Virus record (IMG/VR): IMGVR_UViG_3300025015_000001
Source of the DNA: a virus
Direction: 5' to 3' (one strand)
Length of the DNA stretch: 64,000 nucleotides
Positions 9,201 to 14,944 of the stretch are shown here, piece by piece. The position numbers and the translations under genes were made by a program. Under the pieces are notes generated by a model. That model did not search any database and was not told the origin of the DNA. It worked only from the letters and a program-made list of their open reading frames with translations. Position 1 is the stretch's first letter, and every line of letters starts with the position of its first letter.

Positions 9201-9665
9201 GTCAGTAGTAATACTTCTTATGAAGTAAACAAGATATTTATTGTCTATCTGATTGACTTTAGCTATTTCATTTTAGAAATTCTAAAATCATTTTACAGGG
9301 TTTCACTTCAAGTACTGATAATCATATTTAATTGTCTTTACGATTTATTTATTTTTATTTCCTGTGAGTAACCCCCATTAATCTTTTTAGTTAATTTCAT
9401 TTTAGAATTTCTAAAATCATTTTTAAATTTTACATTTTAGAATTTCTAAAATCAAATAAATTGGAGTATATTCTAATTGACTTTTAAACAAAAAGATACC
9501 GTTAATTTTAGAATGTTATCTAAAATCTTTCAGTATAATTTGTTTATTTAATTTTTGATTAGATGATACTTTTTTAATATTATAAATTAAGACTAACTTA
9601 TAATATTAAAAAAGTATTGAAGGGGTTAAAATTACCCCTTCAATTTTTGATATTTTGATATGATG

Positions 9666-10268
9666 TTAAATCCTACCTTCACTTATTGGATTAAGTGGAT
9701 TAACAGCCGGCACTTGTAAACCCAGCTTTTCAATAATCTCTTCAGTAGTCAGAGAAGAGAGTAACAGCATTTTTTCTTTCTCCTTTTCCGCCTTTTCCTT
9801 GTCATGCAACTTTGTTTGAATAACACTTATCAATATATTGGTATCACCTATTGACAAGTCTTTTATATGACTATCTATGTACTTTGTAAAAGCTGTTAGA
9901 CAATCTGTTTCTTTCTTTGCTGCTTTTTCTTTGCTTGCGTTTCTTTTCTCAGATGCAGCACTTGAAAAGGCGTTTGCAAGAGGTAAATCACCGTTAGCAA
10001 GATAAGCAAGTAAAGTGCCCTTCCCACTTACAATCTTCAAATCACCTTCTTTCATGTCCTTATATGCGTTTGCTGTTGAGGCAACCTTTACCGTAAAAGA
10101 CTTACCCAAATTTTCCCAGTCGGTTTTTTTCATACCAACAATCTGAGTATTAATCTTAGTGTCAAGATTAAACGCATAGTCGCACTTTCTTGTATGTTCT
10201 AAGCTTGCAATCTCATTAACATCTTTAAAACCGTTAAACTCTTTTTCTAAATCTTGTATACTTATCAT
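9666..10268 (-). CDS. hypothetical protein (Lys-rich), first gene downstream of tandem promoters
   Basis: ORF; start refined to MISIQ after a GGAGG SD. Confidence 0.7.
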   Translation of the reverse strand: MISIQDLEKEFNGFKDVNEIASLEHTRKCDYAFNLDTKINTQIVGMKKTDWENLGKSFTVKVASTANAYKDMKEGDLKIVSGKGTLLAYLANGDLPLANAFSSAASEKRNASKEKAAKKETDCLTAFTKYIDSHIKDLSIGDTNILISVIQTKLHDKEKAEKEKEKMLLLSSLTTEEIIEKLGLQVPAVNPLNPISEGRI

Positions 10269-10512
10269 TTTTAAAACCTCCATTTTAGAATTTCTAAAAT
10301 CCCAGATTATCCTACTTTATATTAAATATTTACCATACTATACTTATGGTAAGATAATCCTATTTTATATCACTTTATAAGAAAGTGATAATTGATTAAA
10401 CTTTATCAGGTGCTAACCTTCACCTTTAAATTGTAGTTTTTAGTTTCCGTTTAACCTCCCTTATTAATTTTTTATAAATCCTTTAAACCTTCATCTCTTA
10501 CTCTTGACTATA

Positions 10513-10794: not shown

Positions 10795-11093
10795 GAAGAT
10801 AATCCTAGAAAGGGGGGTATTCGAGCTGGCTGACGGTGGAGCATTTTATTTATATCCATTTCTTATAATTTTCATTTTATCATTGTGACATATTACAACT
10901 TATATAATATCTATTAATACTCATCTCATATTTGCATCATATAAAACCCACCATAACTTCTAAAATTATATGCCTATTACTTAAAATTATTAACAATGTA
11001 GTGCTTATTGATTACTCAATACCCTCAATTCTTATACCAAATTTGACTTCCTTATTATCTCATTAATTTCTTTTAAAGTTTGTATTGCTTACT

Positions 11094-11510
11094 TCATAAG
11101 AAGTATTCTACTGCTTTATCTGGCTCTACTATACAATTTTCTAATGTTCCAAAATATTCTTCTAAACAATTTAAAAGTAACTTCTTTATCCTAGGTTCAT
11201 CTGGGGAGTGGGGGAGCTTACTCTCAATATATAACTTTTCTAAATCTTTTTCCTTACTAAAGAAATATTCTTTAATTTGAGCAAGGGTCCACTCACCTCT
11301 TCTTATTGATTTTAATTGCTCATTGTTACGTTCTAAGTCCAAGTCCCCTTCTATAAGAATCATTTCTATTTCATTTAATAATCGAACTATATGATAAGCA
11401 AATTTCAGATCCATTTGATGTGTCTGGTACGTGAGCTGTCGCTTAATTCCTGCTTTAACTAGCCTTGCATATTCTACTAGTTCTTTATCTGACAAATCAC
11501 AAAGTTGCAT
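11094..11510 (-). CDS. RlaP-like Pol-beta nucleotidyltransferase, C-terminal half
   Basis: DLKFAYHIVRLL...DLDLERNNEQLKSIRRGEW...LPHSPDE matches the C-terminus of phage Pol-beta-superfamily NTases; own ATG with a GGAG SD. Confidence 0.8.
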   Translation of the reverse strand: MQLCDLSDKELVEYARLVKAGIKRQLTYQTHQMDLKFAYHIVRLLNEIEMILIEGDLDLERNNEQLKSIRRGEWTLAQIKEYFFSKEKDLEKLYIESKLPHSPDEPRIKKLLLNCLEEYFGTLENCIVEPDKAVEYFL

Positions 11511-12468
11511 AGTATGCTCCTTTTAAAGCTTTTGTAACTAGTCTTTCCATTAATGCATCATTGTGAATAGCTCTACCAGATAGATACTTATACTGAATGT
11601 GTTGCTTTTTACAGTATTGTTTTAGTCCATTCATTTTATTTTTATTATTTAAAATTTTAATCAAAAGACGTAAAGGCTTAACATCAAAAATAATTTCTTT
11701 CCCATTTAAAAATTTAATATAAAAATCAATACGAGTATATCGTAAATGTCCTTCCAAGTCTAAATATGGCACTACGCTATCTTCTAGTGCATAATAAGTT
11801 ATAGTTTCACACTTTTCTATATAATTAAGAACGTACTCTTCCCAAGAACTTCTATAAAAATATTCTTTACCCGTTTTATTTGAAAAGAAAAATCCAGCTT
11901 TATGATTTTTATGAAAATTACAATTTTTAGTAAACTCAGATTTAGCTAAACTTTTGCTAACTTTTACACTAAATTTGTTGCGCCAAGTAGTATCTCTACC
12001 CTCCCATATAAGCTTGCATCGTACTTTATGATTTTCGCGATTTTGTGGGTCTTGTAGTGACTTTTTAAAAGGATTTTTATCTCCACTAATGTCTGCATGA
12101 TTGAGGGACATTTTCTTTCTTGTTTTCTCAGAGTGTCTGTATCCTTTTGTAGTTAAAAGTTTTTGGTCCTTAACAAATACCTCGACACATTTCTTACTAC
12201 AAAATTCTCTCCAACCAGAACCGAGGGTGTGCAACTCTACTGACTCGCTACAGATTCGACAAGTATGTTCTATATTATCATCCCATAAATATCTAAAAAT
12301 TTTCTCATTAATATTTATTCCTTTATACTTTTCTATATCTGCGAGCCCTGATAGCCTGCTCAGATATAGCTTTTTGTGTGGGTGTAAAACTAAATGACTT
12401 CCGGTCTTTTTATTTCTATATTGAACTATTTTGAATTCTATAAGAAGTTTTAAACGTTCTTGTATCAT
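11497..12468 (-). mobile_element. putative homing endonuclease (NUMOD3-like motif plus TnsA-N-like PD-(D/E)xK nuclease)
   Basis: GYRHSEKTRKKMS (NUMOD3-like); YRSSWE...VPY...RIDFYI...IFDVKP; inserted between the two NTase halves. Confidence 0.75.
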
Positions 12469-12485
12469 AATGCAACCTCTATATT

Positions 12486-13091
12486 TTATACTAATTGTCT
12501 TCTATATATTTCTTTTTCTATATCTTCTAAACTATAAGAGCACTTTAAATTTTTATTTTTCTCAAATTGTCGAACATTTATAATGTATTTTGATTCTTGT
12601 GCATTTCTTAATTTGTGTAAAGAAGAATACGCATATCCTTTAAATTTATGCCATGCTCCTTTGTGAAGAAATACCTTTCTCTCATCTCTTACCATATTAG
12701 CTATCTTAGTCATATATAATACACATCTTGATGGGACAAAGAGGCTATCAATCATATTAGGGTTATTTTCCATGCATAGCATAAAATACTTAACTATATT
12801 ATATACTGATATGTCGTATTCTCTGTTATTATCTTTGTCTATTAAATGATGCTCCTGATATTGCTCGAAGTAATTCTTTTGCCTACCGAATCCTATTATG
12901 TCTCCGGCTAGATGAGGGAATACTATATCCTTATGAGGAATACAAAATCCATAGATATCAATGTCAGATAAATCATCAGATACACCATAAGCTACTGATC
13001 CCACCATTACCTCATACTGAATGCTTTTAGGGAGCCATGGTGGGGCGCTTAGTAAATTTTGCTTATATAATTTCTGAACTACACTTGACAT
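12486..13091 (-). CDS. RlaP-like Pol-beta nucleotidyltransferase, N-terminal (catalytic) half
   Basis: GSVAYGVSDDLSDIDIYG catalytic motif; NNPNMIDSLF; HKFKGYAYS. Confidence 0.85.
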   Translation of the reverse strand: MSSVVQKLYKQNLLSAPPWLPKSIQYEVMVGSVAYGVSDDLSDIDIYGFCIPHKDIVFPHLAGDIIGFGRQKNYFEQYQEHHLIDKDNNREYDISVYNIVKYFMLCMENNPNMIDSLFVPSRCVLYMTKIANMVRDERKVFLHKGAWHKFKGYAYSSLHKLRNAQESKYIINVRQFEKNKNLKCSYSLEDIEKEIYRRQLV

Positions 13092-13164
13092 ACGTACCTT
13101 TCTAATTTTTATTATATATACTATAGCATATCTGTAATGCTAATGCAATATAATATTTTTAGTA

Positions 13165-13193
13165 TTGACAATTAGTATTATTTATACTATATT
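13165..13193 (+). promoter_or_regulatory. sigma70-type promoter
   Basis: TTGACA-N17-TATATT, 8 nt before the HNH start codon. Confidence 0.55.
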
Positions 13194-13200
13194 ACTAAGT

Positions 13201-13557
13201 ATGAAAATAAATAGAGAAGCAGTGCATAGTAAATTTAATGGTCATTGTGCATACTGTGGTTGTGGGATCACTGTTAAAACTATGCAGGTGGACCATATCA
13301 TTCCTAAACTATTATTTAATGCAAAAATAGGATACAATGTGAATGATATTAAAAATCTTAATCCCGCATGCAGAGTGTGTAATAATTGGAAAAGCATATA
13401 CTCTGTAGAGGAATTTAGAAAGCAGATGCAGAAGCAAGTTGCGGCTGCAAGAAAATATAGTAGAAATTTTCGTATGGCAGAAAGATTTGGATTAATTACC
13501 GAAAACAAAATTGACGTAATATTTTATTTTGAATGTAGTGGTCTTACCTATATTTAA
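13201..13557 (+). CDS. HNH endonuclease
   Basis: CAYCG...QVDHIIP...NLNPACRVCN. Confidence 0.9.
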   Translation: MKINREAVHSKFNGHCAYCGCGITVKTMQVDHIIPKLLFNAKIGYNVNDIKNLNPACRVCNNWKSIYSVEEFRKQMQKQVAAARKYSRNFRMAERFGLITENKIDVIFYFECSGLTYI

Positions 13558-13816: not shown

Positions 13817-14944
13817 ATGACTACTCAACCTAAAACCATATATAAAGAGCTAATGTCTTTAGTAGAAAATCCATTATGTAAGGAAGCTTTTTATTACAAG
13901 GACTTTTATATAGAAAATACTTATTATCGTATCTTCAACTATAGACTAGCTTCGTATTCAGACTTCTTACTACCTTCTTCATTAGAGTGTCGTGGTATAA
14001 TGTTTGTGGTAGATGTGGATGGTAAATATACTAATTTAGTATGCCGTCCTATGAAAAAGTTTTTTGGGCTAAACGAAAATCCTTTTACCTCTGATTTAGA
14101 GTTATCTAATAGAACAATAGCTAATATTTATGAAAAAGCCGATGGTAGCCTTATCAGTACATTTTTGCAAAATGGCGAACTAAGATTAAAATCTAAAATG
14201 AGTTTAGACAGTGAGCAGGTCATAGATGCCACCAAGTGGCTTAATTCGCCCCGTAATGAGTTATTTAGGAAATCACTACATAAGCTAGCTTTAGATAATT
14301 ATACTACAAATTTGGAGTGGATCTCGCCGCTCAATAGGATAGTATTATTATATCCTGAACCTAAACTTGTGGTATTAAACATACGACATAATTATACTGG
14401 AGAGTATCTTAATTTTTCTGATGTTGTTAATGAGTATGAAATATCAGAAAAATATTTAATTAGTGAGGTTCATTGTGACAATTTAGAAAAGTTTATTAAT
14501 GATGTTCCTACTATGACTGATATAGAAGGATTTGTTATTTTACTTAAGTCTAGTCAGAGAATTAAGATAAAAACATTAGAATACTTACGTAAGCATAGAT
14601 GCAAAGAATCAGTAGATAATGCTAAAGCCCTTATTGAGAATATACTATATGAAACCATAGATGATGTTAAATCATTATTCATTGATAATGAGTTTATTTT
14701 AAATAGGATACGTAATGTAGAAAATATAGTAATCCCTAAATATAATCATATTGACAGTACTGTTAATTTATTTTATAATTCTAATAAGAACTTAAATAGA
14801 AAAGATTATGCTACTAAGGGTATGGCGGAATTAGGAAATTTATTTCACCTGGCTATGGTATTATATACTCATGGATCTGCTGATGTTAGGGGTTTTTGTA
14901 TGAAGTATTACAAAGATATATTTGATATAAAGGAGGAAAATTAA
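13817..14944 (+). CDS. T4 Rnl1-like RNA ligase
   Basis: ECRGIMF, motif I EKADGS, motif IV EGFV. Confidence 0.88.
   Translation: MTTQPKTIYKELMSLVENPLCKEAFYYKDFYIENTYYRIFNYRLASYSDFLLPSSLECRGIMFVVDVDGKYTNLVCRPMKKFFGLNENPFTSDLELSNRTIANIYEKADGSLISTFLQNGELRLKSKMSLDSEQVIDATKWLNSPRNELFRKSLHKLALDNYTTNLEWISPLNRIVLLYPEPKLVVLNIRHNYTGEYLNFSDVVNEYEISEKYLISEVHCDNLEKFINDVPTMTDIEGFVILLKSSQRIKIKTLEYLRKHRCKESVDNAKALIENILYETIDDVKSLFIDNEFILNRIRNVENIVIPKYNHIDSTVNLFYNSNKNLNRKDYATKGMAELGNLFHLAMVLYTHGSADVRGFCMKYYKDIFDIKEEN

Follow-up and report, generated by a model that had tools for sequence, protein, structure and literature searches.

In the 64,000-nucleotide (nt) stretch of DNA analysed here (the window), which is taken from the minus strand of the complete virus record IMGVR_UViG_3300025015_000001 (194,269 bp, terminal repeats present), the gene for RlaP is found in two pieces with a homing endonuclease gene between them. 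RlaP is the RNA ligase-associated Pol-beta nucleotidyltransferase (NTase), which adds one or two nucleoside monophosphates to the 3'-OH ends of damaged RNA (PMC12776372). We consider it likely that a homing-endonuclease cassette split this gene into two separately translated halves, which reassemble as an enzyme. A genome-wide search gave one RlaP locus, and the endonuclease gene is present as a single copy. The open reading frames (ORFs) of the split locus and their parts, in window positions and amino acids (aa), are as follows:

12486-13091, minus strand: N-half ORF, 201 aa, stop at 12486-12488
12603-13091, minus strand: native part of the N-half, residues 1-163, the Pol-beta NTase domain of RlaP
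12486-12602, minus strand: N-tail, residues 164-201 plus stop, an extension without counterpart in short one-piece alleles as seen in alignments
12469-12485, minus strand: spacer of 17 nt, bearing the GAGG ribosome-binding site of the endonuclease gene
11497-12468, minus strand: endonuclease ORF, 323 aa, ATG at 12468, stop at 11497-11499
11094-11510, minus strand: C-half ORF, 138 aa, ATG at 11510
11445-11510, minus strand: C-head, residues 1-22, the start of the C-half with the motif L-x-D-L-S-D-x-E-L
11115-11444, minus strand: native part of the C-half, residues 23-132, the helical domain of RlaP

Both halves are recognised as RlaP, in agreement with an initial annotation that had proposed a split RlaP-like NTase from the letters alone. 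The N-half matches the Pfam family RlaP (PF10127) with an E-value of 3.8e-15 and 56.7 bits, the curated cut-off of the family being 23 bits. On phrog_388, which has 351 positions, the N-half matches positions 37-194 and the C-half positions 238-342 (C-half E 1.7e-16). Since adjacent parts of phrog_388 are matched in order, the two halves are collinear pieces of one family, and this collinearity also holds against one-piece homologs. All NTase motif residues are present in the N-half (G31-S32, D43-x-D45 and D93); RlaP catalysis needs three aspartates (PMC12776372). Furthermore, when a conserved column is taken as one kept at 85% or more across the family alignment, 59 of 59 such columns are identical in the N-half and 41 of 42 in the C-half. 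The helical domain of RlaP is found here on a separate chain, apart from its last helix (see below). A sequence search of the PDB with phmmer for an RlaP structure returned no match.

The two ORFs downstream of the N-half have start signals of their own. The GAGG of the endonuclease gene stands 7 nt before its ATG within the spacer. The ATG of the C-half overlaps the 3' end of the endonuclease ORF by 14 nt, and its own start signal, AAGGAG, is found 6 nt before the ATG and inside the 3' end of the endonuclease ORF. This matches the initial annotation, which had described three minus-strand ORFs, a C-half with its own Shine-Dalgarno sequence and ATG, and a 17-nt gap on one side of the endonuclease gene with an overlap on the other. 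The two halves share the same reading frame; the endonuclease ORF differs from both and stops lie in between. No terminator-like site was found between the three ORFs, and the RNAs of the junctions, including the 17-nt spacer, fold no better than shuffled sequence on either side. Upstream of the N-half, we observed a TATAAATA box at 13179-13186 (minus strand), which we take to be the T4 late-promoter consensus, and a sigma-70-like ATTACA-16-TATAAT at 13111-13138 (minus strand), both being consensus matches only.

The top database matches of the N-half are two one-piece proteins, P0156 (295 aa) and P0157 (296 aa). Residues 1-163 of the N-half are 81% identical to residues 1-162 of P0156 and residues 23-135 of the C-half are 77% identical to its residues 168-280, so that the alignment to intact homologs which the initial annotation had proposed as a check comes out collinear. 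About five linker residues of P0156 correspond here to the 38-aa N-tail, the endonuclease gene and the 22-aa C-head. At the same site P0156 and P0157 (81% and 76% identical) and the loci L005/L007 are free of the endonuclease, which amounts to a presence/absence polymorphism. At the DNA level, the split locus L009 carries 1.2 kb in place of 62 nt of L005/L007, and the homology ends near residue 162 of the N-half and restarts near residue 36 of the C-half. A short linker is also found in the distant RlaPs of Bacillus and Mycobacterium phages, and for this reason the short linker is taken as ancestral. Two points go beyond what had been annotated initially: ordinary one-piece RlaP lacks both the last 38 aa of the N-half and the first 22 aa of the C-half, and a 26-nt insert cuts the C-half short at its 3' end.

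The two extensions are conserved in their pattern among the split alleles and missing from short alleles. The tail ends roughly in I-P-x3-S-L-x-D-I-E-x-E-I-x2-R-x-L across the split alleles (SLEDIEKEIYRRQLV in the window) and the head starts with M-x(n)-L-x2-L-S/T-D-x-E-L. Homologous tails are found on other split alleles and also inside long one-piece alleles, five of which (L055, L016, L073, L084 and L092) hold the whole module of tail and head. An AlphaFold2 (AF2) model of the fused allele L055 has a predicted local distance difference test score (pLDDT) of 93.7, with a helical module (helices 168-179, 186-195, 200-203 and 206-218), and its confidence is lowest at residues 181-200, which is exactly the region where the split alleles are cut. 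The closest solved fold found by Foldseek for this model is the two-domain kanamycin NTase ANT(4'). A resemblance in hydrophobic spacing between the C-head and the RlaP N-terminus was considered as a sign that the head is a copy of that N-terminus, carried inward with an upstream endonuclease, and found no support (hhalign probability 2%, P 0.02).

The gene between the halves had been annotated as a NUMOD3 plus PD-(D/E)xK endonuclease, an assignment borne out by the Pfam hits of its homologs, by its RSSWE motif and by structural comparison. Its parts are:

about residues 69-95: treble-clef zinc ribbon
residues 109-134: NUMOD3-like motif
about residues 190-300: TnsA-like PD-(D/E)xK nuclease with E210, D248, D262 and K264

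Pfam on the window copy itself is weak (NUMOD3 E 0.015, nuclease E 0.0015). Among 32 database relatives, most carry precomputed hits to NUMOD3 (PF07460) and to the TnsA-like family (PF08722), and the alignment gives an invariant family signature, RSSWE...E...DF...(E/D)xKP, in which the window copy has D at position 262. As read from this signature, the catalytic residues of the endonuclease are intact. The AF2 model of the endonuclease (pLDDT 85.6) matches Tn7 TnsA (1t0f) in Foldseek with E 1e-5, probability 1.00 and a root-mean-square deviation of 3.4 A. The DNA-binding N-terminus differs among members, with a zinc ribbon here and helix-turn-helix or C2H2-like modules elsewhere. With its own ORF and start signals, outside any detected intron or intein, the gene has the make-up of a free-standing homing-endonuclease gene.

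The family is tightly linked to RlaP. All 18 full-length members found in IMG/VR lie inside or directly upstream of an RlaP gene: inside it in L090 (the same contig stretch as L009), L093, L094/L095 and L096, and directly upstream in L091, L092, L097-L105 and L110, often with overlapping stop and start. The RlaPs paired in this way include some that are only 23-30% identical to that of the window.

The split itself recurs. At least 8 IMG/VR loci were counted as split with the same tail motifs, namely the window together with L006, L009, L027, L028, L085, L093 and L096, and between their halves are found:

window, L009, L093 and L096: the same endonuclease family, zinc-ribbon subtype
L027 and L085: the same endonuclease family, helix-turn-helix subtypes
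L028: an ORF of 199 aa that is unrelated and whose HNH-like motif was recognised by eye alone
L006 (4539-4736): a 128-nt gap, and a 65-aa frame overlapping the end of the N-half

The 65-aa frame of L006 keeps both ends of a P0141-like endonuclease and is an internally deleted endonuclease in a gene that is still split. In each of the 8 tabulated split alleles the C-half starts at an ATG that overlaps or directly adjoins the end of the ORF before it, in most cases behind a purine-rich site, and in three cassettes the endonuclease ATG lies inside the coding sequence of the tail. In a set of 5.8 billion proteins, the C-half matched 342 proteins of 75-242 aa; a motif search found the head at the start of 42 C-halves, of which 36 are database clusters. 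Among the 119 best matches of the N-half we counted about 29 free-standing proteins of 197-209 aa with the tail, several of which share contigs with C-halves or endonucleases. Altogether, free-standing halves with these extensions make up about 30-40 protein clusters for either half. The split is kept across alleles whose N-halves are only 46-57% identical to that of the window. Its persistence, including in L006 with its decayed endonuclease, points to selection on the halves, and conservation and recurrence together argue for selection on a working two-chain enzyme. DNA nearly identical to the locus was found in none of the public phage records, and a metagenome scan gave only three more distant one-piece alleles.

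Some free-standing C-halves (P0045, P0073, P0080 and P0121, also P0043) have another head, of the type M-D-I-D-Y-H-I-S..., or start without a head at the H-K-M motif; one of the headless ones comes from a contig of 117 kb. Such C-halves may stem from additional splits that arose independently, or from errors in gene calling.

In a tree of 77 alleles from which the linker columns were left out, six split alleles, and likewise four one-piece alleles that carry the module, are spread out among the short ones. The split state needs 6 changes on this tree, at least 4 of which are forced by well-supported branches. L009 pairs with L005/L007 and L028 pairs with L055, in both cases with 100% support.

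The favoured explanation would run as follows. A homing-endonuclease cassette would have inserted into a one-piece RlaP gene, at the short linker between its two domains, leaving three coupled ORFs that are most likely read from one transcript: the NTase domain with its 38-aa tail, the endonuclease, and the helical domain with its 22-aa head. The two RlaP chains would then complement each other in trans by reassembling non-covalently into an active two-domain enzyme with its active-site cleft. The helical extensions would have come with the insertion and would form or stabilise the junction, like the NrdA-a/NrdA-b tails of phage Aeh1. When infections are mixed, the endonuclease would presumably cleave RlaP alleles that lack it, and repair would then copy its gene into them, dragging the flanking tail and head sequences along.

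Several observations weigh against this explanation. The candidate promoter upstream of the N-half is only a match to a consensus. The deep part of the tree is poorly resolved, with 31 of 74 forks open. When L009 and L093 are compared, their tails are more alike (85-87% of nt) than their endonuclease genes (42-68%), a contrast from which it follows that the unit does not always travel as one block; a cassette moving as one rigid block was rejected on this ground. In seven split alleles compared, the tails show no consistent complementarity of charge of the kind found in Aeh1. Finally, the C-terminal helix is cut off in the window copy by a 26-nt insert, and this copy may be impaired by the loss. 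The features concerned are:

11089-11114, minus strand: insert of 26 nt, which ends the C-half early (AVEYFL, stop at 11094-11096)
11032-11088, minus strand: the native C-terminus, now out of place and read in the +2 frame (18 codons and a stop)
9208-9233, plus strand: second copy of the hairpin motif, AATACTTCTTATGAAGTAA, inverted and within AT-rich DNA that is non-coding

Owing to this insert the C-half of the window ends in ...P-D-K-A-V-E-Y-F-L, and its native last 18 codons, 15 of which (83%) are identical to the end of P0156, are found downstream in the +2 frame. More than 90% of about 260 subfamily members run 24-31 residues past the Y-G-x-L motif, which corresponds to the C-terminal helix; in PfRlaP this helix packs back onto the NTase domain (PMC12776372). 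The insert holds a 6-bp hairpin, UACUUC-UUAU-GAAGUA, at the loop of which the reading frame reaches its last sense codon and its stop; the fold z-score is only -0.9. A 19-nt core of the insert has one further exact copy in the genome, inverted and 1.9 kb away at 9208-9233, with no match in 100 shuffles. None of the relatives shows the insert. The exact 138-aa C-half ORF is present on 21 contigs, and for this reason the insert is no error of the assembly. A small hairpin element may have inserted here recently, possibly to the detriment of the enzyme, and the exact copy in non-coding DNA suggests a small mobile or regulatory hairpin over a recoding signal.

Two other origins of the insert were considered and rejected. 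A local tandem duplication would account for 16 of 26 matches to the next 26 nt, but the exact 19-nt distant copy marks a discrete motif. The idea that the two hairpin copies bound a segment whose inversion would exchange one C-terminus for another was dismissed because the motif itself holds an in-frame stop and inversion would leave the protein unchanged. An ORFan at 9666-10283 and AT-rich DNA are flanked by the two copies; at 9240-9600 the window is AT-rich (19-22% GC) and ORF-free, and recurring short translated patterns on the minus strand suggest short direct repeats.

It has also to be asked whether ribosomes hop over the insert as a programmed coding gap and so restore the C-terminal helix, in which case the insert might in addition spoil the target of the endonuclease. 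We hold this to be quite improbable. The downstream 18 codons are kept, at 83% identity to P0156 and with the native stop at their end; the last sense codon, UUA, with UGA right after it, stands in the loop of the 6-bp hairpin and has a match 23 nt downstream in the correct frame, GCA...GCA forms a second matched codon pair, and the bypass insert of T4 and mobA make up one mobile cassette (10.1101/2022.08.31.505936). However, the hairpin is not better than shuffles, no GAG-type site is spaced correctly for the UUA landing codon, the insert is confined to this phage among the relatives, and the motif recurs exactly in DNA that is non-coding.

Another outcome would be that the gene is decaying, the insertion or the later 26-nt insert having inactivated RlaP while RNA repair is dispensable in the host of the phage or covered by other enzymes. 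This is an unlikely account, even though the window copy has lost a helix that more than 90% of its relatives keep, RlaP is an accessory gene, and the genome holds an AAA_33 kinase ORF and an Rnl2-type ligase. Indeed, 100 of 101 strongly conserved columns are intact, the 339 codons of the two halves run without internal stop or frameshift, the start signals are intact, and the exact C-half ORF recurs on 21 contigs. Likewise, the split persists in alleles 46-57% identical and in L006, whose endonuclease is decayed. Since the displaced 18 codons are still 83% identical to P0156, the truncation would be recent or harmless. Inactivating changes in the C-half had been named initially as something that would speak against a working split enzyme; the window copy comes partly under this, as the 26-nt insert removes its C-terminal helix.

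Rejoining of the pieces by splicing, through a group I or group II intron, an intein, or a split intein as in the 'fractured genes', has in our view hardly any likelihood. Introns or inteins are frequent in phage genes hit by endonucleases, the two halves are in the same frame in the window, and in the relative L020 this gene is interrupted in frame, some 30 residues downstream, by an intein of 350 aa. An Rfam search at E up to 10 nevertheless showed no intron, only chance hits of the small nucleolar RNA type, and neither junction has significant RNA structure. The initial annotation had argued that there was no room for intron RNA. Taken alone this argument is unsound, as about 115 nt and 66 nt of the ORF ends lack a counterpart in ordinary one-piece alleles. 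An intron is excluded because these stretches code for conserved protein and are also present, joined in frame, in a few alleles of the one-piece form. An intron of group I or II is thus ruled out by the Rfam null, the shuffle-like folds of the junctions and the coding nature of the flanks. The absence of intein motifs had likewise been annotated, and it holds: the three ORFs are not in one frame, stops intervene, and Pfam gave no Hint or intein hit. The intein fold is beta-rich. The extensions total about 60 aa and are helical in the L055 model, the residue after the head is Lys23 and not Cys, Ser or Thr, and the module of tail and head is retained inside mature one-piece proteins. An intein or split intein is ruled out by the Pfam null and by this helical module kept in one-piece alleles.

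The intein of L020 (4001-5794, 350 aa) is a case of its own. It is located at the conserved junction of G-F-D and C-K-F-A-Y-H, starts with Cys, ends in G-N and is followed by Cys, and it holds a LAGLIDADG-like stretch, L-S-G-L-F-V-S-E-G-S. The RlaP gene is evidently a general target for mobile elements. In Raoultella phage Ro1 (L087:1495-2565), a 356-aa RlaP is enlarged by about 100 unrelated aa at the linker site that is interrupted in the split alleles, and this site appears to be a general permissive spot in the RlaP family. At L046:4001-6220 the open frame of an RlaP homolog extends to 740 aa, and the protein may be fused at its C-terminus to a further domain.

How the module of tail and head came to be where it is can be told in two ways, neither of which we would put forward with more than tentative support. 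It may be a portable helical 'assembly adaptor' of about 60 aa that travels with endonuclease cassettes to the linkers of RlaP, renders the break harmless by keeping the chains together, outlives the endonuclease and, once the endonuclease gene has been lost by deletion, turns into a new in-frame insertion domain, the 26-nt hairpin insert being a further element linked to the cassette (a target-site spoiler or a ribosomal coding gap). Alternatively, and equally doubtful to us, it may be an older insertion domain of one RlaP lineage, with endonucleases landing later in its surface loop and the module spreading as a co-converted flank. One-piece alleles with the whole module do exist (the five named above), L055 is modelled with high confidence, the linker site takes the unrelated insert of phage Ro1, three different intervening genes are found at one site, and the tails of L009 and L093 are closer than their endonuclease genes. 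On the other hand, the long one-piece alleles are few (4 distinct among 77 rows) and scattered, forming no clade; their junction lengths differ, as expected from separate deletions fusing tail to head; and the endonuclease ATG inside the tail coding sequence of three cassettes ties the tail to the cassette. On these sequence patterns, the few and scattered long alleles with their differing junctions would favour re-fusion after loss of the endonuclease.

The association of RlaP with RNA ligases, mentioned in the initial annotation, is seen here as well. Two neighbouring genes are found next to the N-half:

13817-14944, plus strand: Rnl1-type RNA ligase gene, Pfam RNA_lig_T4_1 E 2.5e-26 and T4_Rnl1_C E 6e-13
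13165-13557, plus strand: HNH endonuclease ORF, 130 aa, Pfam HNH E 7.7e-8

The ligase gene, whose product would be the expected partner of RlaP in function, lies 725 nt from the start of the N-half. The HNH ORF stands between the two, divergent from the N-half, and matches phrog_2118 only at positions 165-268 of 301, so it may be a shortened form. Further RNA-repair genes are present elsewhere in the genome, an ORF with an AAA_33 kinase domain and the Rnl2-type ligase. At L091:3890-5170 a 426-aa ORF with a K-L-D-G ligase-type motif follows a one-piece RlaP, which makes another pairing of RlaP and ligase.

The class of mechanism is already known from nrdA-a/mobE/nrdA-b of phage Aeh1 (Friedrich et al. 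2007; Crona et al. 2010, PMC3045599); the enzyme, the endonuclease family and the breadth differ. In both cases a free-standing homing-endonuclease gene divides an enzyme gene into two separately translated ORFs, neither RNA nor protein splicing is involved, unique C- and N-terminal tails derive from the insertion, and the endonuclease family is usually beside its target gene and inside it in some genomes only. The initial annotation had drawn this parallel, which proves closer than was claimed, given that the tails arrived with the insertion as in NrdA-a/NrdA-b (PMC3045599). The Aeh1 enzyme cannot do without the tails that it gained through the insertion (PMC3045599), and the authors of that study predicted such tails to be general, though difficult to find. 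By contrast, Aeh1 concerns a tetrameric ribonucleotide reductase cut in the active site by an HNH endonuclease gene, whereas here a monomeric two-domain RNA NTase is cut at its domain linker by a gene for a NUMOD3 plus TnsA-like PD-(D/E)xK endonuclease. Aeh1 is a singleton with charge-complementary tails; here dozens of lineages, known from their sequences, have conserved tail motifs in which no such complementarity is seen, the intervening gene turns over, and fused one-piece forms retain the tails.

Other systems share single traits. The T4 topoisomerase genes 39 and 60 with mobA (PMC2988022; 10.1101/2022.08.31.505936) are likewise an enzyme gene split in association with an endonuclease, with tail-like extensions and a short non-coding insert in the downstream piece, but the bypass of the 50-nt insert in gene 60 is proven and the 26-nt insert here is at the far 3' end and only in the window phage. 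The 'fractured genes' (Dassa et al. 2009, PMC2677866) are also metagenomic phage enzyme genes broken around an endonuclease gene; they differ in having split inteins and a Vsr-like EDxHD endonuclease, in place of short helical extensions without intein blocks that are kept in one-piece proteins. In T4, mobD adjoins nrdC.11 (PMC2988022 Table 1) and NrdC.11 is RlaP (PMC12776372), hence a free-standing endonuclease gene stands directly beside a phage RlaP gene, as in the upstream members of the family described here, except that mobD is an HNH gene and nrdC.11 is unsplit. PfRlaP and PaRlaP of Pseudomonas (PMC12776372) belong to the same Pfam family and are linked to an RNA ligase gene; their NTase and helical domains form a cleft within one polypeptide, compared with two chains here. 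Comparative notes on RlaP are given in PMC7824862. In the full-text literature, we found no report of a split RlaP or of the linkage between this endonuclease family and RlaP.

Of enzymes that a free-standing endonuclease gene has interrupted and that tails supplied by the insertion have saved, Aeh1 NrdA has been the one studied biochemically, and the same solution would now be met in a different enzyme with a different endonuclease family. The RlaP family offers the natural variants side by side, with the allele untouched, the endonuclease beside the gene, inside it, swapped or decayed, and the gene re-fused with its tails kept; with this series it can be tested directly where the tails come from, what they do and how the life cycle of the element runs. 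It would also provide naturally split halves of an RNA 3'-end-modifying enzyme that may assemble by themselves. For annotation, 'hypothetical' ORFs of about 200 aa and about 150 aa around an endonuclease gene in large phages should be read as one RlaP.

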